Below, in pieces: positions 14,983 through 39,978 of a stretch of 45,512 bases of DNA (position 1 is its first letter; each line of letters starts with the position of its first letter). The position numbers were made by a program, and so were the translations under genes. Origin of the DNA: Burkholderiales bacterium (lineage in GTDB: Bacteria > Pseudomonadota > Gammaproteobacteria > Burkholderiales > Burkholderiaceae_C); NCBI GenBank assembly GCA_031427315.1, contig JANPNF010000263.1, positions 1-45,512 on the forward strand, read 5' to 3'. The notes below the pieces were generated by a model. The model made no database searches and was not told where the DNA came from. It saw only the letters and a program-made list of their open reading frames with translations.

Positions 14983-15080
14983 CTAGGGTTCCGTGCCCGG
15001 CCCTGTGCCGGGTGGACTGGTCCGAGAGCGGTCGGCCGCAATGCATCGCGGTTCCACGGAGGGACAAAAGCCCGGGAGGA
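14983..15080 (+). promoter_or_regulatory. Guanidine-I riboswitch (ykkC-yxkD motif), copy 1
   Basis: CTAGGGTTCCG ... CTGGTCCGAGAG ... CCACGGAGGGACAAAAGCCCGGGAGG reproduces the invariant ykkC blocks. It is followed by the classical guanidine regulon genes. Confidence 0.9.
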
Positions 15081-15141
15081 AGTTGTCGTCAGCGGACGGC
15101 GGCTGCCCCTCTCGCTTTGTGCCACTGCCCTGGAGCGATTG

Positions 15142-16002: not shown

Positions 16003-16016
16003 GCCGGAGCGCCGCC

Positions 16017-16883: not shown

Positions 16884-16910
16884 CCGGGCGCGCCCAACAC
16901 CCCGAACCGC

Positions 16911-17693: not shown

Positions 17694-18367
17694 TGCTTGC
17701 CACTGTCGAAAGCCTGCTGAACCCCGCCAATGCGGTGATCGACGAGGTGTGCCTGGCCGGTGACCCGTGGGCGAAAGTCTTAAAGCAAGGCCAAACGTTT
17801 CGCATCGTTGACCTCGAAGGCAACCAAGCCGTCGACACGATTTTCTACAGCGCCACCGATGTCGGCGAGCGCTACAGCCTGACGCACACGATCCAGGCTC
17901 AGGGCGCGCTGTACCTGACGGCGGGCTCGGTGCTGATGTCGAGCGAGGCGCGCCCGATGTTGACGATCACAGCAGACACCTGCGGCCGCCACGACACGCT
18001 GGGTGGCGCCTGTTCGTGCGAGAGCAACACCGTGCGCTACGCACTGGAAAAGCGAACCATGCACAGCTGCCGCGACAGCTTCATGCTGGCGCTGGCGCAA
18101 ATCGATGCGGGCAGCGAGGCAACGGCAGGCGTGCCGCGCCTGAGCAAGCGCGACGTGGTGTCGAACATCAATTTCTTCATGAACGTGCCGGTCACTCCTG
18201 AAGGCAGGCTGACCTTCGAGGACGGCATCTCCGCACCCGGCAAGTACGTCGAGATGCGTGCCGAGATGGACATGGTCGTGCTGGTGTCGAACTGCCCGCA
18301 GCTGAACAACCCGTGCAACGGCTACAACCCGACGCCGGTGCGCTTTCTGGTCTGGGACCCGGCCTAG
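17693..18367 (+). CDS. Urea-carboxylase-associated family protein (DUF1989; candidate carboxyguanidine deiminase subunit)
   Basis: 224 aa. The ATG overlaps the previous stop (TGATG). Contains [12 protein letters not shown]...NINFFMNVP...[19 protein letters not shown]. Confidence 0.8.
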
Positions 18368-18462
18368 GGCAACGTTGCCCTTAGGCCACGCCACGCCGCG
18401 CCGGACGACCGGAGTGTGCATCCGATGAGCGCAGGACGACCTGCTTTGCCGCTGAGCCCGCC

Positions 18463-22095: not shown

Positions 22096-22110
22096 CATCG
22101 AATCCAAAGG

Positions 22111-24004: not shown

Positions 24005-24069
24005 TGGACGTGTGGGCAGGTGGAGCGAGTTCGCAGAGTCAAACCGTGCACTCCTCACACTCAGGGTCA

Positions 24070-24182
24070 CTAGGGTTCCGATTGGCAGTAATGCCGGTGC
24101 TGGTCCGAGAGTGCCCCGGCTTCGAAGGCTGCCGTGACAACGGCCGCGTCGAGGCTCCACGGAGGGATAAAAGCCCGGGAGA
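24070..24182 (+). promoter_or_regulatory. Guanidine-I riboswitch (ykkC-yxkD motif), copy 2
   Basis: CTAGGGTTCCG ... CTGGTCCGAGAG ... CCACGGAGGGATAAAAGCCCGGGAGA. Downstream, TCTCC (24203-24207) can pair with the aptamer-closing GGAGA (24178-24182), and a T-rich run lies at 24216-24223. Confidence 0.9.
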
Positions 24183-24239
24183 TTGACGCATCGAACACGT
24201 CTTCTCCTGCGCCCGTTTCTTTTACCTGGAGCTCTCGAC

Positions 24240-25292
24240 ATGGAATTCTTCTGTTCCCTTCGCTCTTCCCCTTCGTTCCCTGCGACGCTGCTGCGTCGAT
24301 TCAGTCACACCCTGGCCAAGCCGCTGGCTGGTGTGGCACTGGCTGCATTCGCGGTGGCCGGTCACGCGGCCGACGTCACGTCGATGAAGATCGGCACGGT
24401 CGTGTGGATCGGCTACGGGCCGTTCTATGTGGCCGAGAAGCTCGACCTGTTCAAGAAATACAAACTGAAGGTCAGCCTGCAGGTCTTCACCGACCCGGCG
24501 TTGATCCCCTCAGCCATTGCCAGCGGTGCGGTCGACGGCGGCATGCTGACCTATGACCAGGTCATCGGGCAAGTCGCCGCTGGTCGGTCGCAGAAGGTGG
24601 TGATGCCGATTGACTACTCGAATGGCGGCGACGCGATCGTGGCCGACAAAAGCATCGTCAAAGTGGCTGACTTCAAGGGCAAGAAGGTCGGTTTCAACCC
24701 GCTGTCGCCGTCCGACTTCCTGCTGTCGTACGCGCTCAAAGTCAACGGCCTGACCGACAAGGACATCACGCCGATCAACATGACTCCCGAATCCGTACCT
24801 GCGGCGATGGCGTCGGGCAAGCTGCAGATCGGCGTCACCTACGAGCCCAGCCTGTCGCAGATCATCAGCCAGGGCGGCGGCAAAAAGTTCAAGGTGGTGT
24901 TCTCGTCGAAGGACGCCCCGGGGCTGATCGCCGACGTGCTGGTGTTCGATGAGAAGGTCATCAAGGCCAAGCCGACCGAGATCTCCGGTGTCATCCAGGC
25001 CTACCTCGACGGCATGGCCTACATCAAGGCCAAGCCGGACGAGGCGGCCAAGATCATCGGCAAGGCAATGGGTGTGTCGGCGAAAGAAGTCAAAGAGCAG
25101 TGGTCGGGCGTCTACAACATCCCGCTGGCCGAGATGCCGAAGGCTTTCACCAAGGCGACCGAGACCACCTCGTACTACGCCAGCAGCGAAATCATTTCCG
25201 AGTTGCTGAAGGCCAAGGGCCAGATCACCACGGCGCCTGCCACCGAGGCGACGATGGATGCGCAATTCGTCACCGCGTTGGTGAAGAAGTGA
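24240..25292 (+). CDS. ABC transporter substrate-binding protein (NMT1/THI5-like, NitT/TauT family)
   Basis: GGAG lies 8 nt before the ATG at 24240. The signal peptide has a twin-arginine-like LLRRFSH motif and an AGHA-AD cleavage context. The mature part is homologous to the binding protein at 36671..37660. The listed TTG at 24183 would lie inside the riboswitch. Confidence 0.85.
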   Translation: MEFFCSLRSSPSFPATLLRRFSHTLAKPLAGVALAAFAVAGHAADVTSMKIGTVVWIGYGPFYVAEKLDLFKKYKLKVSLQVFTDPALIPSAIASGAVDGGMLTYDQVIGQVAAGRSQKVVMPIDYSNGGDAIVADKSIVKVADFKGKKVGFNPLSPSDFLLSYALKVNGLTDKDITPINMTPESVPAAMASGKLQIGVTYEPSLSQIISQGGGKKFKVVFSSKDAPGLIADVLVFDEKVIKAKPTEISGVIQAYLDGMAYIKAKPDEAAKIIGKAMGVSAKEVKEQWSGVYNIPLAEMPKAFTKATETTSYYASSEIISELLKAKGQITTAPATEATMDAQFVTALVKK

Positions 25293-26296
25293 GCTTCCGC
25301 GCCCCGGACGGCGCCGCGCCCAACATGGCGGCGCTGGCCTTCACCCTCATCGGCTACCCGGTCGGCATCGCCTTGTTGACCGTGCCGTCCTGGGCGCTCA
25401 ACGCGATCGGATTCGTGCTGCTGACGCTGACCCTCGTCTGGTCGGCCTACTACATCCATGAGTTCGCGCACCAGGCCATTTTCCGCAACCCAGCGCTCAA
25501 CGAACGCTGGGGCACGCTGATGAGCTGGCTCAACGGCAGCTGCTACGCACGCTTCGCCGACCTGCGGCGCAAGCACATGCGCCACCACGTCGAGCGCGCC
25601 GACGTGATCACCTTCGATGCACGCGGCTTCCTGCTGGCCGCCCCGGCCTGGCTGCGCCGCAGCGTGCTGGCGCTGGAGTGGGCCTACTTCCCGGCGGTCG
25701 AATTCCTGATGCGCGGCTTCGTGGTCGCGCTGCCGTTCAAGCCCGGCGGCTCGAATGCGACACGGGCCCGCATCGTCAGCATTGCCTTGCTGAGATTCGG
25801 CGCCTTCGCCGCGCTCGGCTGGTATTCGCCGAAGGCGCTGGTGCTGTACTTCACCGCCTACCTGGCATTCGTCACGGTGCTGCGTTTCGCCGACTGTTTC
25901 CAGCACACCTACGACGCGTACCCGATCCTGGATGACGCGCCGATCCCGAACGACAAGGTGCGTGACCGCGCCTACGAACAGGCCAACACCTTCAGCAACG
26001 TCGTCGGGCTCGACAGCTTCTGGCTGAACTTGCTGTGGCTGAACTTCGGCTACCACAACGCCCACCACGAGCGCCCCACCGTGCCCTGGCACCGCTTGCC
26101 GGCCTATCACCGTGAGCTCTACGGTGAGGGCTACCGCCAGGTGGTGCCGATGAGTCAGCTGCTGAAGGCGTTTCACCGGCACCGCCTCACCCGTGTGCTG
26201 TCGGGCGATTACGGCGAGGTTCGCGACCCCGAAGTGTCTGGGCGTGCCGATGGCTTCGTCGGCGCGGTCGGCGTGTCGTTCCTGACGGCGGTCTGA
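25289..26296 (+). CDS. Membrane fatty-acid-desaturase-family di-iron enzyme (desaturase/hydroxylase-like)
   Basis: Three histidine boxes, HEFAH, HMRHH and HNAHH, with hydrophobic N-terminal and central segments. The start is either the GTG at 25289, overlapping the upstream stop (GTGA), or the ATG at 25325. Confidence 0.8.
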   Translation: MSFRAPDGAAPNMAALAFTLIGYPVGIALLTVPSWALNAIGFVLLTLTLVWSAYYIHEFAHQAIFRNPALNERWGTLMSWLNGSCYARFADLRRKHMRHHVERADVITFDARGFLLAAPAWLRRSVLALEWAYFPAVEFLMRGFVVALPFKPGGSNATRARIVSIALLRFGAFAALGWYSPKALVLYFTAYLAFVTVLRFADCFQHTYDAYPILDDAPIPNDKVRDRAYEQANTFSNVVGLDSFWLNLLWLNFGYHNAHHERPTVPWHRLPAYHRELYGEGYRQVVPMSQLLKAFHRHRLTRVLSGDYGEVRDPEVSGRADGFVGAVGVSFLTAV

Positions 26297-26297
26297 T

Positions 26298-27122
26298 GTG
26301 ACCGTCAACGTCGCTTCGCGGGGTGGCCCGCGGACTGAGCCGTGCCACGGCCTGCAAGGCCTCACCGTGGTGTTGACCGGTGCGGCCGGCGGCATCGGTC
26401 GCGCGCTGGCGACGGCGTTCGCCGAACAGGGCGTGCGCTTGATCGTGACCGATCGCGATACGCAAGCCCTGCACCGCCTGGCCGACGGGCTGGCGGCCAG
26501 CGCACAGGTGACAGCGATCGCCGCCGACCTCGGGCTGGACCACGACCTGAACGCCTTCGCAGCCGATGTGCAAGCCAGCCACGGTCGGGTCGACGTGCTG
26601 GTCAACAACGCCGGTACCGAGTACCCGACACCGCTGGCCGATGTGGCGCCGGACGCCGCAGCGCGCTGGTCGGCACTGCTCGACAACAACGTCGGCAGCA
26701 TGGCTCGGCTCACCCGTGCGCTGTTGCCGCTGATGACCGAGGGCGCCAGCGTCATCAACCAATCGTCGATCTGGGGGCTGACCGGTGTGGCGGACTTCTC
26801 GGCCTATGTGGCGAGCAAACATGCGGTGATCGGCCTCACGCGTTCACTGGCCTGGGAGCTGGCGCCGCGCGGCATCCGTGTCAATGCGGTGTGTCTGGGC
26901 TGGATCCGCACCGAGGCAGCGCTGCGCTCGCTGGCCAGCATGGCCGCCGTGCAAGGGCGCAGCGAAGCCGAGGTGGAACGCGAGATCCTGTCGCGGCAGG
27001 CCAACCCGACGATGCTGGACGCGTCCGACATCGCCGGCGTGTTTCTGTTCCTGGCGAGTCGCGACGCGCTCTCGCTGACCGGCCAGGCGATCAGTGCCAG
27101 CCATGGCGAGGTCATGAATTGA
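26298..27122 (+). CDS. Short-chain dehydrogenase/reductase
   Basis: TGAAGGIGRA, NNAG and YVASKHA (YxxxK). The GTG lies 1 nt after the upstream stop. Confidence 0.85.
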   Translation: MTVNVASRGGPRTEPCHGLQGLTVVLTGAAGGIGRALATAFAEQGVRLIVTDRDTQALHRLADGLAASAQVTAIAADLGLDHDLNAFAADVQASHGRVDVLVNNAGTEYPTPLADVAPDAAARWSALLDNNVGSMARLTRALLPLMTEGASVINQSSIWGLTGVADFSAYVASKHAVIGLTRSLAWELAPRGIRVNAVCLGWIRTEAALRSLASMAAVQGRSEAEVEREILSRQANPTMLDASDIAGVFLFLASRDALSLTGQAISASHGEVMN

Positions 27123-27904
27123 TGGCGACCGAAACAGCGCTCACCGACACCCTTCGGCTGACCCTCGTCGGCCGCGTCGTGCTGGTGACGGGTGCCGCAA
27201 CCGGCATCGGCCGGGCCATCGCCCTGGCCTGCGGCCGCGCCGGGGCGGCGGTCGCGGTCAACCACCTGGGCCGCGCGGCAGAGGCCGAGTCCGTCGTGAG
27301 GCAACTCGCGGCGGCGGGGGCATCAGCACTGGCCTTCGAGGCCGATGTGACCCAGGCCGCCGCGGTGACCGCCATGGTCAGCGCGGTGGAGCGCGCCTTC
27401 GGGCCGATCGATGCGCTGGTCAACAACGCCGGCATCCTGCAGGAAAAGCCCTTCCTCGACACCACGGAAGCCGATTGGGATCGCATGCTCGACACGGACC
27501 TGAAGTCGGTCTTCCTGATGTGCAAGGCGGTGCTGCCCGGTATGGTCGCCCGCAGTACTGGGGTGATCGTCAACATCGCCTCCGACCTCGGCGTGCTGGG
27601 CCGTGCGCAGTTCGCGCCCTACTGCGCCGCCAAGGCCGGCGTGATCGGCCTGACGCGTTCGCTGGCGCGCGAGTTCGCACCGCACATCCGCGTCAATGCG
27701 ATCGCGCCGGGGGCGGTTGCCACTGCGATGCTGTCGACCGAACACATGAGCCCGGAATGGATCGCCAAGGAACTCGACATCCCGCAGCACCGCTTCGGCG
27801 AACCCGACGAAATCGCCGCCACCGCGTTGTTTTTGCTGTCCGACCTGTCGCGCTTCTATTGCGGGCAGGTGCTGAGCCCGAACGGCGGCTCGCTGATGGC
27901 ATGA
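27122..27904 (+). CDS. Short-chain dehydrogenase/reductase (FabG-like)
   Basis: TGAATGIGRA, NNAG and YCAAKAG. The start overlaps the upstream stop (TGATG). Confidence 0.88.
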   Translation: MATETALTDTLRLTLVGRVVLVTGAATGIGRAIALACGRAGAAVAVNHLGRAAEAESVVRQLAAAGASALAFEADVTQAAAVTAMVSAVERAFGPIDALVNNAGILQEKPFLDTTEADWDRMLDTDLKSVFLMCKAVLPGMVARSTGVIVNIASDLGVLGRAQFAPYCAAKAGVIGLTRSLAREFAPHIRVNAIAPGAVATAMLSTEHMSPEWIAKELDIPQHRFGEPDEIAATALFLLSDLSRFYCGQVLSPNGGSLMA

Positions 27905-27920
27905 GTCCACGGCGTCAACG

Positions 27921-28850
27921 ATGTTTCCCGCCACCTCGCCCGTGATCGTGGCCGCGAACCCGACGCCGCGCGATACCCGCGGGCCCACGCTGGTGCTGCT
28001 CACCTCGACCGTGTTGTGGGGCCTGCTGTGGTGGCCGCTGAAGGGCTTCTCCGCCGCCGGCTTGTCGGGGCCGGTGTTGTCCTTGCTGACCTATGGCGCG
28101 GTCGGTGTCTGCAGCATCGGTTTTTTGTGGCGCCAACGCCGGGCCTGGCGACCGCAGACCGGTTTGCTGCTGTTGCTGATGGCGGTCGGCGGCTGGGCCA
28201 ATTCCGCTTTCGTGCAGGCGCTGGTGCTCGGCGACGTGGTGCGGGTGATGCTGCTGTTCTACTTGGCGCCGGTGTGGTCGGTGCTGGGTGGGCGATTGTT
28301 CCTGGGCGAGGCGATCAGCCGCCGTCGCGGGTTCGCGGTGGCGCTGGCGCTGGTCGGCCTGTGGTTCGTGATCGGTGGCAGCGCGGCCTGGGCGCGGCCC
28401 TTGGGCACCGCCGACTGGCTGGCGTTGACGGCGGGTCTCGCCTTCGCCGGCAACAACCTGATCTCGCGCGCCGCACAGGCGATCCCAATGCTGTCGAAGA
28501 CGGTGGCGGTGTTCTTCGGTTGCGGCGTGGTGTCGGCGGCCAGCGCGCTGCTGACCGGCGCGGTCGTGCCAGTGATCAGCGTGCCGCTCGCGCTGGGCCT
28601 GGCGGGCTACGCCTTCGTCTGGCTGGTGCTGGCGACCGTCACCTGGCAGTACGGCGTGACGCACCTCGAAAGCGGCCGTGCGGGCGTGATCCTGACCATC
28701 GAATTGCTGGTGTCGGTGGTGTCGGCCGTGCTGCTGGGCGGGGAATCGCTGCGGCCGAGTGAATGGGCTGGTGGCGTGCTGATAGCCGTTGCGGCATTGA
28801 TCGAGGCCACCGATTCGAACGAGTCTGTACATAAGGAGATCTCTGTATGA
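27921..28850 (+). CDS. EamA/DMT-family membrane transporter
   Basis: 309 aa, about 10 hydrophobic helices, and the two-fold internal EamA architecture. Confidence 0.8.
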   Translation: MFPATSPVIVAANPTPRDTRGPTLVLLTSTVLWGLLWWPLKGFSAAGLSGPVLSLLTYGAVGVCSIGFLWRQRRAWRPQTGLLLLLMAVGGWANSAFVQALVLGDVVRVMLLFYLAPVWSVLGGRLFLGEAISRRRGFAVALALVGLWFVIGGSAAWARPLGTADWLALTAGLAFAGNNLISRAAQAIPMLSKTVAVFFGCGVVSAASALLTGAVVPVISVPLALGLAGYAFVWLVLATVTWQYGVTHLESGRAGVILTIELLVSVVSAVLLGGESLRPSEWAGGVLIAVAALIEATDSNESVHKEISV

Positions 28851-29611
28851 GCACTGTCTGGATGAACCAGCTGTCGTGGGTCGACTACGAGGCGCGGCTG
28901 AAGCAGGACCAGCCTGCGATCCTGCTGCCGGTCGGTGCGCTCGAACAACACGGTCCCCACCTGCCGCTGGGCACCGACGGCCTGCTGTCCGCTGCGGTCG
29001 CCGCCGATACCGCCGCGCGCATCGGCGCGCTGGTCGCGCCGACGCTGTCGTATGGCTACAAATCGCAGCCGAAGTGCGGCGGAGGTCAGCATTTCTGCGG
29101 CACCACCAGTGTCGACGCGGCGACTTTGATCGGCTCGGTGCGTGATGCGGTGCGCGAGTTCGCACGGCACGGTGCCACCAAACTGGTGTTCGTCAACGGC
29201 CACTACGAGAACCAGTGGTTCCTGACCGAAGGCATCGACCTCGGCCTGCGCGACCTCGGCGCGCGCTCGACGCTGCAGGTGATGCGCCTCGAATACTGGG
29301 ACTTCCTGTCGGAGGCCACGCTGGCCAGCGTGTTCCCCGACGGCTTCCCCGGCTTCGCACTGGAGCATGCGGCGGTGATCGAGACCTCGATGATGCTGCA
29401 CTACCACCCGAGCCTGGTGCGGCTGGATTTGATCCCCGACGAGTCGCCGGCCGACTTCCCGCCCTACGACGTCTACCCGACGCGCAAGCACTGGGTGCCG
29501 CTGTCGGGCGTGCTGTCGTCGGCGCGCGGTTCCAGCGCCGAGAAGGGTGCAGCGATGGCGGCCGAGCTGTCGATGCGCATCGCCGCAGCGATCACGCACG
29601 AATTCGGCTGA
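28847..29611 (+). CDS. Creatinine amidohydrolase (creatininase)
   Basis: LSWVDYEARL, LPVGALEQHGPHLPLGTD, YGYKSQPKCGGGQHFCGTTS, VNGHYEN and FPPYDVYP follow the Pseudomonas putida creatininase sequence, as I remember it, block by block. AAGGAG Shine-Dalgarno, and the ATG overlaps the upstream stop (ATGA). Confidence 0.85.
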   Translation: MSTVWMNQLSWVDYEARLKQDQPAILLPVGALEQHGPHLPLGTDGLLSAAVAADTAARIGALVAPTLSYGYKSQPKCGGGQHFCGTTSVDAATLIGSVRDAVREFARHGATKLVFVNGHYENQWFLTEGIDLGLRDLGARSTLQVMRLEYWDFLSEATLASVFPDGFPGFALEHAAVIETSMMLHYHPSLVRLDLIPDESPADFPPYDVYPTRKHWVPLSGVLSSARGSSAEKGAAMAAELSMRIAAAITHEFG

Positions 29612-29625
29612 CGAGTTCGACCGAG

Positions 29626-30294
29626 ATGAGCAAGCCGATGTTCGACGTGTCCCGCACTGCGCTGCTGGTGATCGACCTGCAGCGCGATTTCCTCGATTCG
29701 CGCGGCTACGCGGCACAGGCGGGTGTCGATGTGTCGCGGCTGCGCGCCACGCTGGCCCCGGTGTGCGCACTGATCGACGCGGGGCGAGAGGCCGGTCTGC
29801 GCATCGCCTACACCCGCGAAGGGCACCGGCCCGACCTGTTGGATTGCCCGCCGGCCAAGCTGGCGCGCAGCCGCCACGCGGGCGCCGAAATCGGCTCGAC
29901 CGGGCCGCTCGGCCGCTTGCTGGTGCGTGGCGAACCGGGCCATGGGCTGGTCGACGAGCTGCAGCCGCGCGCCGATGAGCCGGTGATCGACAAACCCGGC
30001 TACAGCGCCTTCCACCAGACCGATCTCGACCAGATTTTGCGCGGCTGGGGCACCGACACCCTGATCGTCTGCGGCGTCACCACCGAGGTCTGTGTGCACA
30101 CCACGCTGCGAGCGGCTACCGACCACGGTCTGCGCTGCATCACCGTCAGCGATGCCTGTGCCGCCTCTGATCCGGCGCTGCAGCAACCCGCGCTGGCGAT
30201 GATTGCGGTCGAAGGCGGCATCTTTGGTGTGGTGATCGACAGCGCCACACTGATTGCGCAACTGCAGCGCCCCCACGACAAGGAGATCCGATGA
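29626..30294 (+). CDS. Isochorismatase-family cysteine hydrolase (biuret/guanylurea/N-carbamoylsarcosine amidase-like)
   Basis: Asp-Lys-Cys triad context: LLVIDLQRDF, VIDKPGYSAF, LIVCGVTTEVCVHTT. Confidence 0.8.
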   Translation: MSKPMFDVSRTALLVIDLQRDFLDSRGYAAQAGVDVSRLRATLAPVCALIDAGREAGLRIAYTREGHRPDLLDCPPAKLARSRHAGAEIGSTGPLGRLLVRGEPGHGLVDELQPRADEPVIDKPGYSAFHQTDLDQILRGWGTDTLIVCGVTTEVCVHTTLRAATDHGLRCITVSDACAASDPALQQPALAMIAVEGGIFGVVIDSATLIAQLQRPHDKEIR

Positions 30295-31097
30295 CACAGG
30301 TACGCAAACTCACGCCGCTGCTGACAGCCACGCATCGGTACGACAAATCGATCTCGACCTGGCAGCGCGGGCGCGGTCAGCAAATCGAGGCGCCGATCCT
30401 CGCCTACCTGATCGAGACTGCGAACGGCCGCATCCTGTACGACGTGGGCTGCGACCACGCGAAGATTGCTGATCCGGTTGCCCGCAATCGCCACTACAAC
30501 CCGGCGACCTTCGAGTTTGGCGCGCCCGACATGCGCGAGGAGCAGCGCCTTCCGCGCCATCTGGCGCGGCTCGGCCTGACGCCGGCCGATGTCGACGTGA
30601 TCTTCATCGGCCACCTGCATTTCGACCACGCCGGCGGGTTGCGCGAGCTGCGCCGCTGCGGCTGTGGTGCCGAAATCCATGTGCAGCGTGACGAGATGGA
30701 AGTCGCACTCAGCGGCGCCGACCCGGCGGTGTTCGCCGACGACCTGATCGACGACGTTGGCGCGCCGCTGCAGTTCAGGCTGCAGTCGGGCGAGTACAGC
30801 GTGCTGCCCGGCGTGCAGGCGGTGGCAACGCCTGGCCACACGGTCGGCCACATGTCGATGTGGATCGAGATGCCGAAAGGCCCACCGGTCCTGCTGGCCG
30901 GTGATGCGGCCGATCTGCAGGAAAACATCGACGACGAGGTTGCGCCTGGAACACTGTGGCAGGGCAGCGAGGCGCAGGCCATCGCCAGCATCCGCAAGTT
31001 GAAGGCGCTGGCCGCCGACACCGGCGCCTGGCTGTGGCCGAACCACGATTTCGCGTTCTACCGCTCGCTGCCGGCGTTTCCGCAGTTTGTGGAATGA
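30291..31097 (+). CDS. Metallo-beta-lactamase-fold hydrolase (lactonase-like)
   Basis: HLHFDHAGG (HxHxDH), TPGHTVGH, LLAGD. AAGGAG Shine-Dalgarno and an ATGA overlap with the upstream gene. Confidence 0.82.
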   Translation: MTQVRKLTPLLTATHRYDKSISTWQRGRGQQIEAPILAYLIETANGRILYDVGCDHAKIADPVARNRHYNPATFEFGAPDMREEQRLPRHLARLGLTPADVDVIFIGHLHFDHAGGLRELRRCGCGAEIHVQRDEMEVALSGADPAVFADDLIDDVGAPLQFRLQSGEYSVLPGVQAVATPGHTVGHMSMWIEMPKGPPVLLAGDAADLQENIDDEVAPGTLWQGSEAQAIASIRKLKALAADTGAWLWPNHDFAFYRSLPAFPQFVE

Positions 31098-31897
31098 CCG
31101 TGGGCGACACCGTTCCCGACGTCCCCGAGCGCTACCGCGGGGTGTGGCGGCGCACGCTGCTCGAAACGCCGAATCACCGTGACACCACAACCTGGGTGCA
31201 CTGGCTGCAGACCACGCGCTGGCACGCCGACCTGCGCGTGCCCGCCGCAGCGGAGGCGGGGCGGTCGGCAATCGCGCTCGATGCAATGGGCCCGGCGCAG
31301 CACCTCGCGCTGGCGCAGCAGCAAGGCTTTTTCGGCCGCACCGAGGTTCAGTCGCAGGGGCCGCGCGACATATGCACCTGGCACCGCCGACTCGACCTGC
31401 AGCCGCCAGGGCTGACGCCCGATGCCGGCTGGATGGCCTTCGACGGTGATGACCGCGTCATCGAAACCGGTGTGCACGGCGTGTACCGCGAGGTGTGGGA
31501 ACGCCTACCCGGCTCGACGGGGCGCACGCTGGTGCTGGCCGACACGGCTGCGCCGCCGGGTGACGACGCTGAAGCGACCGCGACAGCACGCGCCTACCTG
31601 CTGCTCGCCGGTGACTGGTTGATGCGCGTGCGACCGCGGCGGGTCGGCTGGCCACCAGGCACGGCCCCGGGCGACACGCTGGGCAGGCTGCTCGCCCTGC
31701 ATCCGGCCTCGGCCACGGCGCTGCTCGACTTCGAGATTTCGTTTGGTCGGCTGCGCAACGGTGCGTGGCACATCGAGCGATCCAGCCTGCCCGAGCTTGA
31801 AGGCCGCACCGAAGCGATGCACTGGCAGCCACTCGATGACCTGCGCACCGAGGTGCGCTGTGACTTGAGCACCTCCGTTTGGTGCATGCTGGACTGA
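31094..31897 (+). CDS. Hypothetical protein, last gene of the riboswitch-2 operon
   Basis: 267 aa, with an ATGA overlap with the MBL gene and codon usage like its neighbours. I recognise no motif in it. Confidence 0.6.
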   Translation: MTVGDTVPDVPERYRGVWRRTLLETPNHRDTTTWVHWLQTTRWHADLRVPAAAEAGRSAIALDAMGPAQHLALAQQQGFFGRTEVQSQGPRDICTWHRRLDLQPPGLTPDAGWMAFDGDDRVIETGVHGVYREVWERLPGSTGRTLVLADTAAPPGDDAEATATARAYLLLAGDWLMRVRPRRVGWPPGTAPGDTLGRLLALHPASATALLDFEISFGRLRNGAWHIERSSLPELEGRTEAMHWQPLDDLRTEVRCDLSTSVWCMLD

Positions 31898-31937: not shown

Positions 31938-31965
31938 GTATTACGAATCAAGTAATTCGTAATAC
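31938..31965 (+). promoter_or_regulatory. Perfect palindromic operator with NikR-type geometry
   Basis: GTATTACGAAT-caagta-ATTCGTAATAC has perfect 11-bp arms and can be read as GTATTA-N16-TAATAC (the E. coli NikR box is GTATGA-N16-TCATAC). It is an AT-rich island in GC-rich DNA. TAATAC is repeated directly at 31966-31971. Confidence 0.6.
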
Positions 31966-32035: not shown

Positions 32036-33001
32036 ATGAGGGCGCTCCAAATGCTCTTGCCACGCCGGCGACTGATGCCCCGCACCCACTGGTTGCTGGG
32101 CCTGGGGTCGTTCATCGTGCCGCTGCTGATCTGGTGTGTGGTCAGTTACGTGCCCGGCGTCTGGCATCCGCAGATGCGCATCGTCGATGCGGGCGATGTC
32201 GACTACTTCCAGCCGGGCATGCGCGCAGATGTCGACCAGTTCGACAGCGAGGTTCAGGGCCTGCGCGCGAAGGGTGGCCGCGTGCCCATCGGCGTGCTGT
32301 CGAACCCGATCTACCTGCCGGCGCCGCACGAGGTGGCGATCGCTTTCGTGCGCGCGTTCTCGAACACGCCGAAGCAGACCGGCGGCAAGGGCATCCTCGA
32401 CAGCATGGGCGACAGCATCCGGCTGATCGTCTTCGGCTTCCTGCTGTCATCGGTGATTGCGGTGCCGCTGGGCATCGTCTGCGGCACGTATTCAGCGCTG
32501 TCGCGGCTCAACGAGCCCTTCGTCGAGTTCTTCCGCTACCTGCCGGCACCGGCGTTCGGCGCGCTGGCCGTTGCGGTGCTCGGCATCTACGAAGGCCCGA
32601 AGGTGGCGATCATCTTCATCGGCACCTTTTTCCAGCAGGTGCTGGTGGTGGCCAACACCGCGCGCAAGCTCGATTACGCGCTGCTCGAAGCGGCGCTGAC
32701 GTTGGGCACCAAACCCCTGAAGCTGCTGACGCATGTGGTGGTGCCCGGCATCCTGCCCAACCTTTACCGCGACCAGCGCATCCTGCTGGGCTGGGCCTGG
32801 ACGTATCTGGTCGTGGCCGAGCTGATCGGCACCAGCTCGGGCATCACGCTGTTTATCACGCAACAGGCGCGCTTCCAGAATTTCGATGACGTCTACGCCG
32901 CGATCCTGATGATCGGCGTGATCGGCTTCGGCTCCGACCTGCTGCTGGCGCGGCTAGAGCGGGTGCTGTTCCCGTGGGACCGCGGCGCGCTGACCGACTG
33001 A
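32036..33001 (+). CDS. ABC transporter permease (NitT/TauT family), paralog of 15142..16002
   Basis: [24 protein letters not shown]...LGTKP matches the equivalent block of the first permease. Alternative starts are at 32051 (GAGGG Shine-Dalgarno) and 32072. Confidence 0.85.
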
Positions 33002-33003
33002 CC

Positions 33004-33912
33004 ATGCAGAACCCCGCCGACATTCCGTCGTACCTGACGCAATCGCAGCCGGTGCGCGAGCGCTTCGACCGCCTGAAGCAGCGCAAGGTGATCCTCGACG
33101 TGCAGCAGCTCGGCAAGCGCTTCAGCACCGGGCAGGGCGAGGTCGTGGCGCTGAGGGGCATCGACTTCAAGACCTACCGGCGCGAATTCGTCTGCATCAT
33201 CGGCCCGTCGGGCTGCGGAAAATCGACGCTGATCCGCATCCTGGCCGGACTGGAGACGCAGTCCGAGGGCCGTGTGCTGCTCGACGGCCAGGCGGTCTCC
33301 GGCCCGTGCCGCGACCGCGGCATGGTGTTCCAGGGCTACACGCTGTTCCCGTGGCTCAACGTCAAGCGCAATGTGATGTTCGGTCTGCGGATGAACGGCG
33401 CGAGTTACGGTCAGGCCGAACAGAACGCGATGCAGTGGCTAGATCTGGTGGGCCTGTCGAAATTTGCCGACGCCTACCCGCACCAACTCTCCGGCGGCAT
33501 GAAGCAGCGCGTGGCCATCGCGCGGGCCCTGGCCAACCAGCCACGCATCTTGTTGATGGATGAGCCGTTTGGCGCGCTCGACGCGCAGACGCGCGCCAAG
33601 ATGCAGTCGTACCTGCTGGAGATCTGGAAGAACATCGACATCACCATCGTGTTCATCACCCACGACCTCGACGAAGCGATCTTTCTGGCCGACCGCATCC
33701 TGGTGCTGAAGGCCCACCCGGGCGAGATGCAAGAGCTGATCGAGGTGCCGGTGCCGCGCCCGCGCAGCCCGGGGCAGGTCACCTCGCCGGAGTTCCGCGC
33801 GACCAAGGCGCGGCTCGAAGCGCTGATTCACACGCCGAGCGAGGCCACCGATGAAGACATCGTGCTGCCGCCGATCACCCGTTTGACCGACGTCAGCGAC
33901 AACGTGGAATGA
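33004..33912 (+). CDS. ABC transporter ATP-binding protein (NitT/TauT family)
   Basis: Walker [10 protein letters not shown], signature [15 protein letters not shown], Walker [12 protein letters not shown]. Confidence 0.9.
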
Positions 33913-33930
33913 CGATGGATCGGAGCCACC

Positions 33931-34701
33931 ATGCAATGGTCTGAACTGACCTGGTCGGAAGTTCCGGACGCGCTCAAATCGGCGATGAGTGCCGCCATCC
34001 TGCCGGTCGGTGCCACCGAACAGCACGGTCCGCACATGGGCTGCGGCATGGACTTCGTGCTCGCCGACAAGCTCTGTCGCGAGGTCGCACAGCGCACCGG
34101 TGTGCCGATGCTGCCGACGCTGCCCTACGGCTGCTCGGTCGGCCACAGCCGGCGCTGGCCCGGCACGCTGGCGGTGCAGCCGATCACGCTGATCGAGCTG
34201 GTCAAGCAGATCGGCGACTGGGCCCACCACAGCGGTGTGCGGCGGCTGTTCATCGTCAACACCCACGTGACGAACGCCGCGCCGCTGCGCTGTGCGCTGG
34301 AAATGCTGCGCGCCGAACACGACGAGATGATGGTGTCGGTCATCAACTCGGCCACGATCAGCCCGCGGGTGCGCCAGTTTCATTTCGCCGACGGCGACGA
34401 CTGGCACGCCAACGACGCCGAGACCTCGCTGATGCTGGCGCTGGCACCGACCATGGTGCGCCCCGAGCGCCTCGGCCAGGCCGACGACATCGATCGCACC
34501 GGCAGCCTGGTGTTCTCGCACCCGGTCAACCGCACCAGCCTGAACGGCGTGACCGGTGCGCCCAGCCTGGCGGCTGCCGATAAGGGCCGTGAATGGTTCG
34601 GCTGGATGGTCGAGGACCTGAGCGAACTGATCACCCGCGGCCTGCACGAAGAACCGCCGCTGGCGCATTCCTATTTCTCCACACACCACCACGAAGGCTG
34701 A
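33931..34701 (+). CDS. Creatininase-family amidohydrolase (divergent second copy)
   Basis: [18 protein letters not shown] keeps the family metal motif, but NTHVTN replaces NGHYEN and the YGYKSQ substrate-side block is absent. GGAG lies 5 nt before the ATG. Confidence 0.8.
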
Positions 34702-34706
34702 ACCCC

Positions 34707-36068
34707 ATGCACGCATCCGAAGAAGTCCTGGCCGTCCGCGACCGCTTGAAGGGGCAAGGTGTCAAGTACTGCATCGGCGCCTATGTGGACATCCACGGCA
34801 TCCCGAAAGCCAAGGTGGTGCCGATCGACCACCTGCCTCAGATGGCTGCCGGCTCCGAGCGCTACACCGGCTATGCGCTCGACGGCCTGGGCCAGGCGCC
34901 AAGCGACGACGAGCTGTCGTCGGTGCCCGATCTGGGCCACATCATCCAGTTGCCGTGGGAGCCGAAGATCGCCTGGATGCCGGCTGACAACACCTTTCAA
35001 GGCCGGCCCTACCCGTTGAGCACCCGCGTTGCGCTGAAGAACGTGCTGGCGCAGGCCGCCGAGATGGGGCTGGGCATGAACCTCGGCATCGAGTGCGAAA
35101 TCTACCTGCTGAAGCAGGCAGCCGACGGTACGCTGCAGGTGCCGAACCCGGACGACAAGCTGGTCAAGCCCTGTTACGACGTGCGCGGCTTCGTCGACCA
35201 GTTCAGCTGGCTCGACAAGATGGCCACCGCGATCGACGGCCTGGGCTGGGATCTGTACTCGTTCGACCATGAAGACGGCAACGGCCAGTTCGAGTTCGAC
35301 TTCGCCTACAGCGACGCGCTGCGCACGTGCGACCGCCTGATCTTCTTCCGCTTCATGGCCAAGCACTATGCCAAGGAAGAAGGCCTGCTGGCGACGATGA
35401 TGCCCAAGCCCTTCGGCAACCGCACTGGCACCGGCGCGCATTTCAACATGTCGCTGTACGACCTGAAGACCGGGGCCAACCGCTTCGCCTGCGACCCGAA
35501 GGACGACCCGCGCGGGCTGGGCCTGACCACGATGGGCTACCAGTTCATCGCCGGCATCCTGAAGCACGGTCCGGCACTGTGCGCGGCCTTCGCGCCGACG
35601 GTCAATAGCTACAAGCGGCTGGTGCGCCAGGGCGCGATGAGCTACTTCACCTGGGCGCCGGTGTTCAACTCCTTCGGCTCGAACAACCGGACCAACTCGG
35701 TGCGCGTGCCGGCCGGCGGCGGCCGCTGCGAATCACGCAATGCCGACGGCGCGGTGAATCCGTACCTGGCGGCCACACTGGCTTTGGCCGCCGGCCTTGA
35801 AGGCATCCGCGAGAACCTCGACCCCGGCAAGCCGAACGAGGACAACCTGTACGCGATGTCGGAGGCCGAGCGCCGCGAGCGCGGCATCGCGTTCCTGCCG
35901 CAGACGCTGCACGAGGCGGTCGAGGCTTTCGCGGCCGACCCGCTGGTCGAGAAGACGTTGGGCACCGAGTTGCGCAATGAGTTCATCAAGTACAAGACCG
36001 AGGAGTGGAACGCCTACCACCTGACGGTGAGCCAGTGGGAGGTCGATCGCTACAGCTACATGTTCTGA
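34707..36068 (+). CDS. Glutamine-synthetase-family ATP-dependent ligase (GS-like, 453 aa)
   Basis: GS catalytic blocks are present: [48 protein letters not shown]. It starts 5 nt after the creatininase-family stop. Confidence 0.85.
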
Positions 36069-36079
36069 GTTGGCTGTCC

Positions 36080-36097
36080 GCGCGCCAACTGGCGCGC
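36080..36097. terminator. GC hairpin between convergent GS-like and NikR-like genes
   Basis: GCGCGCC-aact-GGCGCGC. No U tract follows. Confidence 0.3.
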
Positions 36098-36184
36098 AGT
36101 GCTGCCGAGGGCGTGGGGTAACCGACCCGGGGGACACGAACGCAACACAGCGGCCCGCCGCAGCGTTCTTGCGCCAACCCAAGA

Positions 36185-36661
36185 TCAGCGCTTCTTAGCG
36201 TGAGGCGGTGGCGATGAATGCAGCGGCGGGATCACCGCGGCCATCAATTGAAGGCGCGCTGTGATCACGCCTTTCAGTGACGTCATGGCATCGACAATGC
36301 CCTGCAGCTTCGGCGCCGGGCCCTGCACCAGGATCACTTCCATCATCTTGTCTTCGGTCAGGTGCACGTGCAGCGAGCTGATGACCTCGGCAATGTTGTC
36401 GTACTGCAGGTCGGACAGCCGCCGCTGCAGGCCGCGCGTGCCGCGGTCGTAGAACAAGGTGATAGTGCCCGCCATCACCTCGTCGCCGAGTTCACGCTTG
36501 TGTTCGACCAGCTGCTGGTTGACCATGTCGCTGATCGCCTGCGAGCGGCTTTCATAGCCGCGGCTGCTGGCCATCTCATCGAGTTCGAGCAGCAGGTCCG
36601 GGTTCATCGAGATGCTGATGCGCACGACGAAACCGTTGGACTTGACGCTCGATCGGGGCAC
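36185..36661 (-). CDS. NikR-family ribbon-helix-helix regulator with an altered metal site
   Basis: The ribbon-helix-helix part RISISMNPDLLLELDEMASSRGYESRSQAISDMV aligns with E. coli NikR [34 protein letters not shown]. The C-terminal ACT-like domain retains LHVH. The GTG start lies 9 nt after the binding-protein stop (alternative GTG at 36625). Confidence 0.8.
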   Translation of the reverse strand: MPRSSVKSNGFVVRISISMNPDLLLELDEMASSRGYESRSQAISDMVNQQLVEHKRELGDEVMAGTITLFYDRGTRGLQRRLSDLQYDNIAEVISSLHVHLTEDKMMEVILVQGPAPKLQGIVDAMTSLKGVITARLQLMAAVIPPLHSSPPPHAKKR

Positions 36662-36670: not shown

Positions 36671-37660
36671 TTACTTGGGCAGGTACGACGCATCGATGTA
36701 GCTGTCGACATCCTGCGCTGCCTTGTAGACCCCGTTGGCCACATTGAAGTCGTCGGCCACCTTCGACGAGCCCGACAACGAGCCGAAGCCCGGCGCCTTG
36801 ACGAAGATCTTCTTGCTGTCCGCCAGCGTCAGTAGCTTCGTGCCCTTGAGCAGCGGCAGGTATTCGGCCGGCTTCAGACCGACGCGCGCCGACATGATCT
36901 TCAGCGCGTCGGGCTGCGTCTTCGGGTCGTTGATGTAGGCCACCACCTTGTCCCAGACCAGCACGACTTTCTTCCAGTCTTCCTTGCGCTTCGCCAGGCT
37001 GGTCGGGTTGACGCCAACGATGTCGTAGATCAGGCCGGGTTCTTCCGCGGAGGTGTAGAGCGGTTTCGCGCCGGGCGAGCCCTTCATCGCCTGACCCGAG
37101 ATCGGCTGCCAGGCGCCGATGGCCGAGATGTCTTTCGAAGCCAGAATCTGCGGCATCTCGTTGGTCTTGGCGTTGACCAGCGTGACATCGGCTTCCTTCA
37201 TGCCGGCCTTCTTCAGCCCGTTGAGCAGCAGCAGGTGCTCGACCAGCCCGAATTCAACCGCGACCTTCTTGCCCTTCAGGTCTTTCAGCGTCTTGATGCC
37301 TGGCTTGCCGACAATCATGTCGTTGCCGTTGGAGTAGTCGGTCAGCACGATCGCCACGCTTTTGCCGCCACCGGCACCTGTCACCAGTGCGTCGCCGTTG
37401 GTCATGCACACCGCGTCGATCTTGCCGGCGGTGAACGCGTCCAGCGAAGCCGAGTAGTCGAACCACTCCAGCTTCACGTCGACACCGGCGTCCTTGAAAA
37501 ACCCCTTGTCCTGCGCCACCTGCCAAGCAACCCAGCCTGGCCAGTCGCTGTAGCCGATCTTCAGCGGCTCGGCCGCCCGCGTGGGCAGCACGGTCAGCGA
37601 CAGCGCCGCCGGGATCAAGGACGTAAAGAGCCGGCGGCTCACGCGAAACATGGAAGTCAT
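36671..37660 (-). CDS. ABC transporter substrate-binding protein (NMT1/THI5-like), paralog of 24240..25292
   Basis: MTSMFRVSRRLFTSLIPAALSLTVLPTRAAEPLKIGYSDWPGW... has a twin-arginine-like SRRLF motif. A GGAA Shine-Dalgarno precedes the ATG at complement 37658-37660. The rest of the listed 519-aa ORF is an extension. Confidence 0.85.
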   Translation of the reverse strand: MTSMFRVSRRLFTSLIPAALSLTVLPTRAAEPLKIGYSDWPGWVAWQVAQDKGFFKDAGVDVKLEWFDYSASLDAFTAGKIDAVCMTNGDALVTGAGGGKSVAIVLTDYSNGNDMIVGKPGIKTLKDLKGKKVAVEFGLVEHLLLLNGLKKAGMKEADVTLVNAKTNEMPQILASKDISAIGAWQPISGQAMKGSPGAKPLYTSAEEPGLIYDIVGVNPTSLAKRKEDWKKVVLVWDKVVAYINDPKTQPDALKIMSARVGLKPAEYLPLLKGTKLLTLADSKKIFVKAPGFGSLSGSSKVADDFNVANGVYKAAQDVDSYIDASYLPK

Positions 37661-37677: not shown

Positions 37678-37705
37678 GTGTTACGGGGGCGTCTGTCGGT
37701 AATAC
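37678..37705 (-). promoter_or_regulatory. Second NikR-geometry operator
   Basis: GTGTTA-N16-TAATAC, with extended arms GTGTTAC / GTAATAC. It lies 18-45 nt upstream of the binding-protein start codon. Confidence 0.5.
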
Positions 37706-38069: not shown

Positions 38070-39197
38070 TTAGTCGGTGTGGGCTGGCACGTGGTCGAGG
38101 GGGGCCACGGTGTCGGCGCCGTCGGCCGCGCACACCCGGTTGCGACCCTGCCGTTTGGCCCGGTACAGGGCAGCGTCGGCGCGCTCGACGGTCGCGAGGA
38201 ACGGTTCGCCGGTCTCCAGCCCGGCGACACCGATCGACACCGTCTTCATCATCGAGAGGCCATCGGGCAGTGGGTGCCGGTGCATCGCCACCGCCTCCAG
38301 CATCTTGTGCGCCACCAGCGTGGCTGAGGCGATGTCGGTCGCCGCCAAGCACACCATAAATTCCTCGCCACCCCAGCGCAGCACGTTGTCGCCCTTGCGC
38401 AGTTCGCGGCGCAGCAGATCGGCCATGCCGCACAGCAGCTGGTCGCCGCAGGCGTGCCCGTGGTCATCGTTGACGCGCTTGAAATGGTCGATGTCGATCA
38501 TCAACACGGCAGCCGGGGGATCGAACGGGCTGCTACGCAGGATCGGCCGCGCAACCACATCGACCGCATGCCGGTTCAGCAGGCCGGTCAGGGCGTCGGA
38601 ATAAGCCGCCTCGCGCAGCAGCGTGCGTTCGGCGGCCACCGACAGCACTGAGCTGAACATGTCCGCCAAGGCCTGGAACAGGCCGATGCCGACCTGTTCG
38701 AAATAGTCCGGCACATCGGCATACAGCGCCAGCAAGCCCCGGTCGGCGTTGACCGTCGAGGCCAACGGCAGTGACACCGCGCTGCGGATGCCGTGCATCG
38801 CCGCCGCCTCGCGCCAGGGGCCGTACAACGACATCCGCGACACATTGAAAGGCTCGACCCGCTTGCCCGCCAACGTGCGGAAGGCCGGGCCGATTTCGGT
38901 CAGGAAGCTGCGATCGATCGCCAGCTTGTGGGCGTAGGCCGCAGCCGGCCCGACGACGATCTGCGGCACGATGGAAGGGGTTTCGACCGGACCGAACCAA
39001 GTCCACGCCAGGCGCACATGCGGCGTGGCCAGCGTCAGTGCCTCGCACACCCGGTGGATGATGTCGCGGTCATTGCGCTGCTCCAGCAGGCGAGACGCGC
39101 TGCGCACCAGCGATTCGGCAACGCAGGCTTTCTCCCGGCTGGCGTCGAAGTGGGGCGTCTCGGCGGGGAGCTGTTGAAAGGGCAGGCGCAGCTTCAT
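38070..39197 (-). CDS. GAF-like sensor diguanylate cyclase (GGDEF domain, GGEEF active site)
   Basis: DALTGLLNRH, IDIDHFKRVNDDHGHACGD, LRWGGEEFMV, RADAALYRAKRQGRNR. The start is MKLRLPF at complement 39195-39197. Confidence 0.85.
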   Translation of the reverse strand: MKLRLPFQQLPAETPHFDASREKACVAESLVRSASRLLEQRNDRDIIHRVCEALTLATPHVRLAWTWFGPVETPSIVPQIVVGPAAAYAHKLAIDRSFLTEIGPAFRTLAGKRVEPFNVSRMSLYGPWREAAAMHGIRSAVSLPLASTVNADRGLLALYADVPDYFEQVGIGLFQALADMFSSVLSVAAERTLLREAAYSDALTGLLNRHAVDVVARPILRSSPFDPPAAVLMIDIDHFKRVNDDHGHACGDQLLCGMADLLRRELRKGDNVLRWGGEEFMVCLAATDIASATLVAHKMLEAVAMHRHPLPDGLSMMKTVSIGVAGLETGEPFLATVERADAALYRAKRQGRNRVCAADGADTVAPLDHVPAHTD

Positions 39198-39366
39198 GGG
39201 AAAGCGGTCATCATGACGACGGTCGCGCCGCGTGGGAGCGACAGTGAAGAATGGACTGCAAGGCAGCTTTATGGAGGCTTCGTTTGGTTGATATCGGCAC
39301 TTTTCGGTCCGACCCAATGGGCGAGCCCATCCGCTCGGCCGTCGGAAGCAGCTTTGCCCTGGCGGA

Positions 39367-39978
39367 ATGCGCCCTCTGAAGCCCCGTCGCTTGCTGGGCA
39401 CGGCACTGGCTGTCGCGCTGTTGTTCAGCGTTCCCGCGGCGGCGCGGGCTCAGCCCGCGCCGCCGCTGGGTGAGTTGACGCTGTATGGCGTGCGCCTCAA
39501 GGGCGCGTCTTTTGAGGCCTTCATTGCGGCGGCGCTGAAGGCTGGCGCCACACCGCTCGCACAGCGCACCGACGGGCCGCCGAGCTTCGACACCCGGGCC
39601 GCTGGCGTGCCAGCGCTGCAGCGCCTGACGGTGGTGAGCGATGCTGCGGGGCTGGTGAGTGCGCAGTTCGTCATCAAGGCGTACGGTCAGGAAAACGAGG
39701 CGCTGCGCCAGTTGCTGGTCAGCAAATACGGATTGCCCACCACCGCCGATGGCGCGCGTCGGCCGTTCCCCGCGTTCGCCGCCCGTTTCGCGCCACGTGG
39801 CAGCTTCGACTGGGATTTCGTCGGCGGCATGAAGCTGATCTACCGTCAGCCGGCACTCGGCGATGCCACGCTGTCGTACACCGATGCCGAGCGGGCGCGG
39901 CGCCTGCCCGTCTCGATCCCAATCCCGATCCCGACGCCCAGCGCCACTGGCCCGGGACCGCTGGTCAACCGGTTTTGA
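39367..39978 (+). CDS. Secreted hypothetical protein
   Basis: Signal peptide MRPLKPRRLLGTALAVALLFSVPAAARA-QP, with a Pro-rich C-terminus (IPIPIPTP). Confidence 0.6.
   Translation: MRPLKPRRLLGTALAVALLFSVPAAARAQPAPPLGELTLYGVRLKGASFEAFIAAALKAGATPLAQRTDGPPSFDTRAAGVPALQRLTVVSDAAGLVSAQFVIKAYGQENEALRQLLVSKYGLPTTADGARRPFPAFAARFAPRGSFDWDFVGGMKLIYRQPALGDATLSYTDAERARRLPVSIPIPIPTPSATGPGPLVNRF

Follow-up and report, generated by a model that had tools for sequence, protein, structure and literature searches.

A glutamine synthetase-like ligase paired with a creatininase-fold hydrolase: a candidate module for guanidine assimilation in bacteria

What substrate could be shared by an ATP-dependent ligase of the glutamine synthetase (GS) superfamily and a hydrolase of the creatininase fold that are encoded by adjacent genes? 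The question is raised by a stretch of DNA from a Burkholderiales bacterium (assembly GCA_031427315.1, contig JANPNF010000263.1, positions 1-45,512; hereinafter, the window) in which the gene for a creatininase family protein (CRNL) is followed directly by the gene for a GS-like protein (GSL), both preceded by the permease and ATPase genes of an ATP-binding cassette (ABC) importer (Table 1). The layout described in the initial annotation of this locus, namely four tightly packed genes on the plus strand with the genes for a binding protein and a regulator converging from the other side, is borne out by the open reading frames and family matches, and the predicted combination of an importer, an ATP-dependent GS-like amine ligase and a divergent creatininase-fold hydrolase holds as well, as far as the sequences indicate. 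That annotation knew of no characterized pathway pairing these two enzyme types; a search of the full-text literature likewise found none, nor any published description of the CRNL-GSL pair, although a passing mention in the founding riboswitch papers is possible. A review from 2025 lists only two routes of guanidine degradation, via the carboxylase and via the nickel-dependent guanidinase (PMC12186494). The module described here is a strong candidate for a third, undescribed route to guanidine as a nitrogen source. The six genes can be read as a self-contained, guanidine-responsive nitrogen assimilation module in which guanidine would be imported and γ-glutamylated by GSL, and the adduct hydrolysed by CRNL, a reading to which we give slightly less than an even chance. 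Both enzyme superfamilies, as well as the idea of amine γ-glutamylation, are well established; what is new is the constant creatininase-fold partner, the regulation by guanidine, and the exchange of a riboswitch and a NikR-like protein.

The enzyme pair and its guanidine-related surroundings

Relatives of CRNL were sought in one genome per species, metagenomes were searched with a CRNL alignment, and the proteins of the window were mapped onto 98 related loci (labelled L0nn). A GS-like gene adjoins the CRNL gene in all 44 loci that extend at least 1.5 kb on both sides, downstream of it in 38 and upstream in 6, and the pairing, in either gene order, reaches down to approximately 40% identity; 43 of the 44 paired ligases have the clade-specific pocket described below. 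The pair is found across Beta-, Gamma- and Alphaproteobacteria and Verrucomicrobiota, in methylotrophs, marine Gammaproteobacteria and soil Alphaproteobacteria among others, with hosts that include Burkholderiales, Methylophilaceae, Spongiibacteraceae, Porticoccaceae, Hyphomicrobium, Acidisoma, Hansschlegelia and Coraliomargarita. The comparison of gene neighborhoods that the initial annotation had proposed thus found the pairing conserved in related genomes and shows that CRNL and GSL form an obligate two-enzyme unit, usually accompanied by an ABC importer of the NitT/TauT type. No creatininase-GS fusion proteins were detected among the long relatives checked, and no plasmid-borne copies of the module were found when looked for. 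In the reverse direction, starting from divergent ligases, a creatininase gene is adjacent for P0121 and P0129 and is not for P0125 and P0149. The P0125 ligase (L099 and L100), which is 46% identical to GSL, has the same T-S-F-D-F pocket and is encoded next to an AllG/DUF1116 gene and a gene for a weakly Metallophos-like protein, so that the ligase clade may have a second type of partner.

The strongest evidence for a link to guanidine is the position of riboswitches. In L012, L013, L014, L022, L026, L038, L051 and L082, a guanidine-I aptamer immediately precedes the module's binding-protein gene; in L087, L097 and L101, which are among the deepest branches of the family, it immediately precedes the pair alone. 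In total, a riboswitch leads the operon holding the CRNL-GSL pair in 11 related loci, and every match that was checked with the Rfam model exceeds the gathering score of that model. Because guanidine-I riboswitches control orthologous modules, guanidine is indicated rather than any of the amines that the initial annotation had put forward (methylamine, polyamines, ethanolamine or isopropylamine); the frame of a ligase acting together with a hydrolase, given in that annotation, stands, but the guanidine island in which the genes lie had been missed.

The window is such an island: it contains a complete guanidine carboxylase pathway together with three riboswitches, two of the guanidine-I and one of the guanidine-II class. 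The carboxylase operon runs from a guanidine-I riboswitch through permease and ATPase genes, a pair of CgdA/B-type DUF1989 genes (16911-18367) and the guanidine-II riboswitch to the genes for the carboxylase and allophanate hydrolase, which is the layout described for enterobacteria (PMC12186494). A binding-protein gene is missing from this operon, the closest being that at 24240-25292, behind the second guanidine-I riboswitch. Of the 34 related loci that span 12 kb or more, 18 also contain the genes for CgdAB, the carboxylase and allophanate hydrolase, frequently in a continuous string of genes that includes the pair. Methylovorus has the genes for the DUF1989 pair, the carboxylase and the allophanate hydrolase immediately after the module, and in single strings of L022, L026, L035, L070, L091 and L096, the pair sits between the importer and the cgdAB-carboxylase-allophanate hydrolase genes. 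In L087 and L097, the riboswitch is followed by the genes for GSL, CRNL and a PuuD-like γ-glutamyl hydrolase (Peptidase_C26), an order also seen in known γ-glutamylation pathways; the window has no gene for a Peptidase_C26-type γ-glutamyl hydrolase, which is encoded in these two distant loci only. Other loci encode a MOSC-domain protein beside the pair (L103), presumably of the family of N-hydroxyguanidine and amidoxime reductases, an arginase family protein (L032), APC permeases (L089 and L090) or Rieske oxygenases (L016, L066 and L068). All of these neighbors fit a guanidine hub, and those for the MOSC reductase, the arginase family protein and the Rieske oxygenases are plausible feeder genes.

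The ligase, the hydrolase and the NikR-like regulator

GSL exceeds the cut-off of the NCBIfam model for type III glutamate-ammonia ligase (TIGR03105; 641 bits against 469.6) and remains below those of the GlnA model (TIGR00653; 269 against 429) and the PuuA model (NF045547; 242 against 650). The TIGR03105 match is no proof of ammonia specificity because this model evidently also covers GmaS, the first enzyme of the N-methylglutamate pathway: the molecule in PDB entry 7CQL carries the name 'Type III glutamate--ammonia ligase', yet is GmaS (PMC7948447). The solved structures closest to GSL are indeed methylamine ligases (9QUR, 378 bits, and 7CQL, 324 bits), which are similar to it in fold and size and share 40-42% identity with it; true GS structures are 34% identical. 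With residue roles assigned from the RhGmaS structure paper (PMC7948447; RhGmaS numbering), GSL retains all glutamate- and Mg-binding residues and nearly all ATP-binding residues. E122, E124, E179, E186, H235, E325, R288, R312, R317 and R327 are invariant in 61-62 of the 62 ligases encoded next to CRNL genes, and the catalytic Asp177, Glu186 and Arg312 of GmaS are invariant in the GSL clade; Lys30' and Tyr147 are shared with GmaS as well. The ammonium site of GS is gone, with Thr in place of Asp50' and, as in GmaS, which also lacks Asp50', Trp in place of the flap glutamate. The claim of the initial annotation that all catalytic blocks of GS are kept is accordingly correct for the metal, ATP and glutamate residues but overstated with respect to Asp50' and the flap glutamate.

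The amine pocket of GSL differs from that of GmaS in that Gln175 is replaced by Ser, Asn188 by Asp and A48' by Thr, with Phe at positions 176 and 189 (T54, S185, F186, D198 and F199 in the numbering of the window protein). Ser175 and Asp188 are found in all 62 CRNL-adjacent ligases, and the pocket signature is invariant across them down to 43% identity; the complete set of pocket residues, in window numbering, is K36, T54, Y157, S185, F186, D187, E189, E196, D198, F199, W316 and R328. Compared with GmaS, the pocket is predicted to be roomier, more acidic and lined with aromatic residues. In a neighbor-joining tree without bootstrap, with GS as the outgroup, the CRNL-linked ligases form an assemblage that is sister to GmaS and not nested in it. 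GmaS also differs from GSL in its partners, which are N-methylglutamate synthase and dehydrogenase instead of a creatininase-fold hydrolase, and GSL operons, unlike those of GmaS, are found under guanidine riboswitches. Taken together, the residue set, the pocket signature and the tree suggest that GSL is a competent ATP-dependent glutamate ligase whose amine is neither ammonia nor, probably, methylamine. A bona fide GS isoenzyme, a possibility considered in the initial annotation, is rejected on the absence of Asp50' and the flap glutamate, the model scores and the position in the tree. Canonical GmaS is rejected on the pocket residues and the gene neighborhood; N-methylglutamate synthase and dehydrogenase genes were found neither in the window nor in the annotated neighborhoods of the related loci.

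CRNL, which public sources name only 'creatininase family protein', aligns over its full length with the Pseudomonas creatininase and keeps the metal-binding and catalytic residues of the latter (E34, H36, D45, H120, H178 and E183). By contrast, S78, Y121, E122, W154, D155 and W174, taken here to be the creatinine-contact residues, are each replaced or deleted in CRNL; the names of PDB entries confirm W154, W174 and E122 as mutant sites studied in creatininase. In agreement with these replacements and with the initial annotation, in which CRNL was said to keep the metal motif and to lack the creatinine-side blocks of a second homolog in the window (28847-29611), the creatininase model TIGR04448 (cut-off 235) gives 113 bits for CRNL and 355 bits for that separately encoded, true creatininase. 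The AlphaFold model of CRNL (pLDDT 79.5) matches only creatininase-fold PDB entries, with a TM score of 0.74 and 28-30% identity; creatininase itself (PDB 1J2T and 1Q3K) shares with CRNL the fold, the metal ligands and the catalytic His178. CRNL is predicted to be a binuclear-metal hydrolase with a remodelled substrate pocket, and the structure of creatininase with bound 1-methylguanidine (PDB 3a6d) suggests that an active site of this fold can accommodate a small guanidine. The identification of CRNL as a true creatininase is rejected on the lost substrate residues and the sub-cut-off score.

The window regulator consists of a ribbon-helix-helix domain and NikR_C, and passes NF003381 only marginally. 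At the nickel positions His76, His87, His89 and Cys95, it has Tyr, His, His and Met; Cys95 is replaced in all 33 regulator orthologs, His76 is variable, and His87 and His89 are lost in some of them. The 139-nt gap preceding the permease gene contains an exact operator-like palindrome, and a second site with one mismatch precedes the binding-protein/regulator operon (Table 1), that is, 2 matches in the window against 0.03 expected. The 6-N16-6 architecture of these sites is that of NikR operators; the Escherichia coli NikR site is GTATGA-N16-TCATAC. The motif, with at most one mismatch, recurs in 24 related loci, 40-150 nt 5' of the gene with which the module begins; in all of these, a NikR-like gene is present or the locus is cut before it. 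None of the riboswitch-led loci contains the motif or a NikR-like gene, and the loci with the NikR-like gene have the operator and no riboswitch preceding the module. Comparison of the loci shows that one of two devices turns the module on, namely a guanidine-I riboswitch or, in loci such as the present one, a predicted NikR family regulator that takes the place of the riboswitch in the operon. From these sequence patterns, we conclude that the NikR-like protein is probably devoted to regulating this module and is not a nickel sensor of the canonical type, and we infer that it does the job done elsewhere by the riboswitch; the palindromes before the permease and binding-protein genes are its proposed binding sites. 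The initial annotation had noted a regulator but not its NikR family membership, the missing nickel site or the conserved operator. A nickel-responsive logic, such as the use of nickel-free pathways when nickel is scarce, is disfavored because the nickel ligands are not conserved. In the metagenomic locus L046, an exact GTATTA-N16-TAATAC site (13572-13599) is located 5' of the carboxylase gene, which suggests that the NikR-like regulator can also control the carboxylase pathway.

Possible reactions of the pair

In the proposed sequence of reactions, guanidine would enter via the ABC importer, and GSL would phosphorylate the γ-carboxylate of glutamate with ATP and transfer the γ-glutamyl group to guanidine, yielding γ-glutamylguanidine, an N-acylguanidine. 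CRNL would hydrolyse this compound at the amidino carbon, giving either urea and glutamine or γ-glutamylurea and ammonia, with glutamate and urea formed later in the second case; the PuuD-like hydrolase of L087 and L097 would be suitably placed for the final release of urea from γ-glutamylurea. Urea could be passed on to the neighboring carboxylase and allophanate hydrolase or to urease. Several considerations argue for this order of steps. The obligate pairing implies a private intermediate; the hydrolysis of guanidine yields only urea and ammonia, so that a hydrolase acting first would leave no special amine for the ligase; and a pocket that, unlike those for ammonia or methylamine, is roomier and has an extra carboxylate and aromatic residues would suit the planar guanidinium ion. 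Creatinine is a cyclic acylguanidine hydrolysed by the CRNL fold, so that the proposed substrate of CRNL would be of the same type as that of creatininase.

The module resembles the guanidine carboxylase pathway in the guanidine-I inducer class and the transporter family, and the two are frequently linked physically. There is also a chemical parallel, in that one ATP would be spent on N-acylation of guanidine, followed by deimination or hydrolysis of the destabilized product; however, the module includes neither biotin carboxylase nor DUF1989 proteins, and its acyl donor would be γ-glutamyl phosphate, not carboxybiotin. With the PuuA/PuuD (putrescine), IpuC/IpuF (isopropylamine) and GlnA4 (ethanolamine) systems, the module has in common an amine tagged with glutamate and a hydrolase that acts later. 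Unlike in the Puu- and Ipu-type pathways, the constant partner is a metal-dependent creatininase-fold enzyme rather than a class-I amidotransferase-type one, and there is no conserved oxidising step.

Several observations weigh against this interpretation. The amine substrate of GSL is deduced from regulation and pocket residues alone, and Q175 and N188 of GmaS also contact ATP, so that their replacement need not reflect amine specificity. Acyl-N cleavage of the kind catalyzed by creatininase would return glutamate and guanidine in a futile cycle, and CRNL would accordingly have to act with a different regiochemistry. The pair is often found beside a complete carboxylase pathway, where it would be redundant, and P0125 is a GSL-type gene that has no creatininase neighbor. 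Close analogs of guanidine, such as methylguanidine, may also be recognized by the guanidine-I aptamer. Finally, the module of the window is not itself preceded by a riboswitch; the nearest one is 7.9 kb upstream, at the head of a different conserved cluster. This riboswitch (24059) may govern the module through read-through, but in L104 and L106, the nine-gene cluster in between is conserved as a unit by itself, and the module is preceded by its own operator.

If the hydrolase acted first, CRNL would split a substituted or cyclic guanidine, for example, methylguanidine into methylamine and urea, and a GmaS-like GSL would trap the released amine. Such a scheme would be in line with the methylamine ligases being the nearest characterized relatives of GSL, with the many methylotrophs among the hosts (Methylovorus, Methylotenera, Hyphomicrobium and Hansschlegelia), with the binding of 1-methylguanidine by creatininase, with the true creatininase cluster just upstream in the window, and with a published guanidine-riboswitch operon that includes methylguanidine feeder enzymes (PMC12508155). 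We nevertheless consider it unlikely: Q175 and N188 of GmaS are replaced in all 62 pair-linked ligases, the annotated neighborhoods contain no genes of the N-methylglutamate pathway, the riboswitch-led operons with only the pair (L101, L087 and L097) would leave the γ-glutamyl amide without an outlet, and the PuuD-like hydrolase encoded downstream would reverse the ligation. It appears improbable that CRNL is a nickel-independent guanidine hydrolase, producing urea and ammonia, and GSL a dedicated GS that captures the ammonia. Although GSL scores above the TIGR03105 equivalog cut-off, its metal, ATP and glutamate residues are all intact and regulation by guanidine would be consistent with this assignment, GSL lacks Asp50' and the flap glutamate, which in GS bind and deprotonate ammonium, and it groups with amine ligases, GmaS having a Km for NH4Cl far above that for methylamine (PMC7948447); furthermore, the housekeeping GS already takes care of ammonia, which is a common metabolite, so that the obligate pairing in 44 of 44 loci would be left unexplained.

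The insertion of the pair into importer-cgdAB-carboxylase-allophanate hydrolase strings in several lineages could indicate an accessory of the carboxylase pathway that acts not on guanidine but on urea or a side product, for example, by γ-glutamylation of urea and subsequent hydrolysis. This role seems quite improbable given that many loci with the pair, including the minimal riboswitch-led operons, have no carboxylase genes nearby, and that the acidic pocket would be ill-suited to neutral urea. Least of all do the data favor a generic amine or amide module unrelated to guanidine, or a plain GS isoenzyme beside a creatinine hydrolase, for which the general precedent of stand-alone GS paralogs and the lack of a riboswitch of its own in front of the window's module could be adduced: guanidine-I riboswitches lead 11 orthologous operons, the PuuA and GlnA scores are far below the cut-offs (242 against 650 and 269 against 429), and the creatinine-contact residues are gone from CRNL, so that this already disfavored option has only a very small chance of being correct.

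The γ-glutamylation of guanidine followed by hydrolysis can be extended to a more specific, and more doubtful, proposal that we put forward tentatively: GSL would ligate guanidine to glutamate and CRNL would hydrolyse the acylguanidine, the two making up a third pathway, free of biotin and nickel, which might bring guanidine nitrogen directly into glutamine. The NikR-like protein, devoid of the nickel site, would sense guanidine or an intermediate of the pathway, as the first protein to do so, and would be exchangeable for the guanidine-I riboswitch. If so, guanidine γ-glutamylation would be a new reaction in nitrogen cycling, thousands of annotations as 'type III glutamine synthetase', 'creatininase family protein' and 'NikR' would be corrected, the module would clearly exemplify the exchange of a riboswitch for a regulatory protein, and the reverse, before one operon, and guanidine use could be engineered without nickel or biotin.

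Gene layout and neighboring genes

Table 1. Features of the guanidine-related part of the window (coordinates in nucleotides)
Feature	Coordinates	Strand	Evidence or remark
Guanidine-I riboswitch	14972-15080	+	Rfam search
Guanidine carboxylase operon	14972-23946	+	TIGR03425 352, TIGR03424 336, TIGR02712 1856, TIGR02713 790 bits
Guanidine-II riboswitch	18397-18444	+	Rfam search
Guanidine carboxylase	18463-22095	+	
Allophanate hydrolase	22096-23946	+	
Guanidine-I riboswitch	24059-24183	+	RF00442, 76 bits against a cut-off of 63; heads cluster 24240-31897
Operator-like palindrome GTATTA-N16-TAATAC, exact	31938-31965		71 nt 5' of permease start
ABC permease, NitT/TauT type	32036-33001	+	PF00528 (BPD_transp_1) 75.9 bits; best NCBIfam SaoP/TauC, below cut-offs
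ABC ATPase	33004-33912	+	PF00005 (ABC_tran) 117 bits
CRNL, creatininase-fold	33931-34701	+	PF02633 227.6 bits; TIGR04448 113 bits against a cut-off of 235
GSL, GS-like ligase, 453 aa	34707-36068	+	PF00120 (Gln-synt_C) 287.9 bits; TIGR03105 641 bits
NikR-family regulator	36185-36610	-	NikR_C 83.4 bits; NF003381 106.7 bits
NMT1-family periplasmic binding protein	36671-37660	-	PF09084, PF13379; TIGR03427 160.8 bits, cut-off 333.9
Second operator-like site GTGTTA-N16-TAATAC, 1 mismatch	37678-37705		just 5' of binding-protein/regulator operon

The permease, ATPase, CRNL and GSL genes are separated by 2, 18 and 5 nt, respectively. The start of GSL was placed at 34707, and the longer open reading frame from 34593 is not likely to represent the actual start. 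The permease orthologs in related loci are 51-67% identical to the one in the window, and the ATPase gene adjoins the permease gene there as well. The binding protein, whose gene together with that of the regulator converges on the 3' end of GSL, has relatives among the binding proteins that accompany urea or guanidine carboxylase, and its gene opens the module in most related loci. A GC-rich inverted repeat (GCGCGCC-AACT-GGCGCGC, 36069-36100) is located directly 3' of the GSL stop codon, within the 116-nt convergent gap, and is a possible bidirectional terminator, albeit one that lacks a T-run; a scan for promoters and terminators gave no information in this GC-rich DNA. Just past the binding-protein gene, a GGDEF-domain protein is encoded (38070-39401, minus strand), with an equivalent neighbor in L004.

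The riboswitch-led cluster upstream of the module (24059-31897, plus strand) consists of nine genes, which encode a binding protein, an FA_desaturase-like membrane protein, two SDRs, an EamA transporter, the true creatininase, a BiuH-like isochorismatase family hydrolase, an MBL-fold lactonase-like protein and a protein without a family match. The cluster recurs, likewise led by a riboswitch, in L104 and L106 (in the latter, without the MBL gene), and parts of it are found beside the module in L044, L045, L047 and L072; the encoded proteins may turn creatinine, or a compound related to it, into a guanidine. The protein without a Pfam or NCBIfam match (31094-31897, 267 aa) is conserved, with 504 homologs, of which all those named by their sources are 'hypothetical protein', and with homologs in the guanidine loci L031, L079 and L098; its AlphaFold model (pLDDT 93) is all-β, with weak, partial, lipocalin-like matches in PDB. 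Elsewhere in the window, a TPP riboswitch (RF00059, 71 bits) lies directly 5' of thiC (ThiC_Rad_SAM; 3288-5373), an ordinary arrangement.

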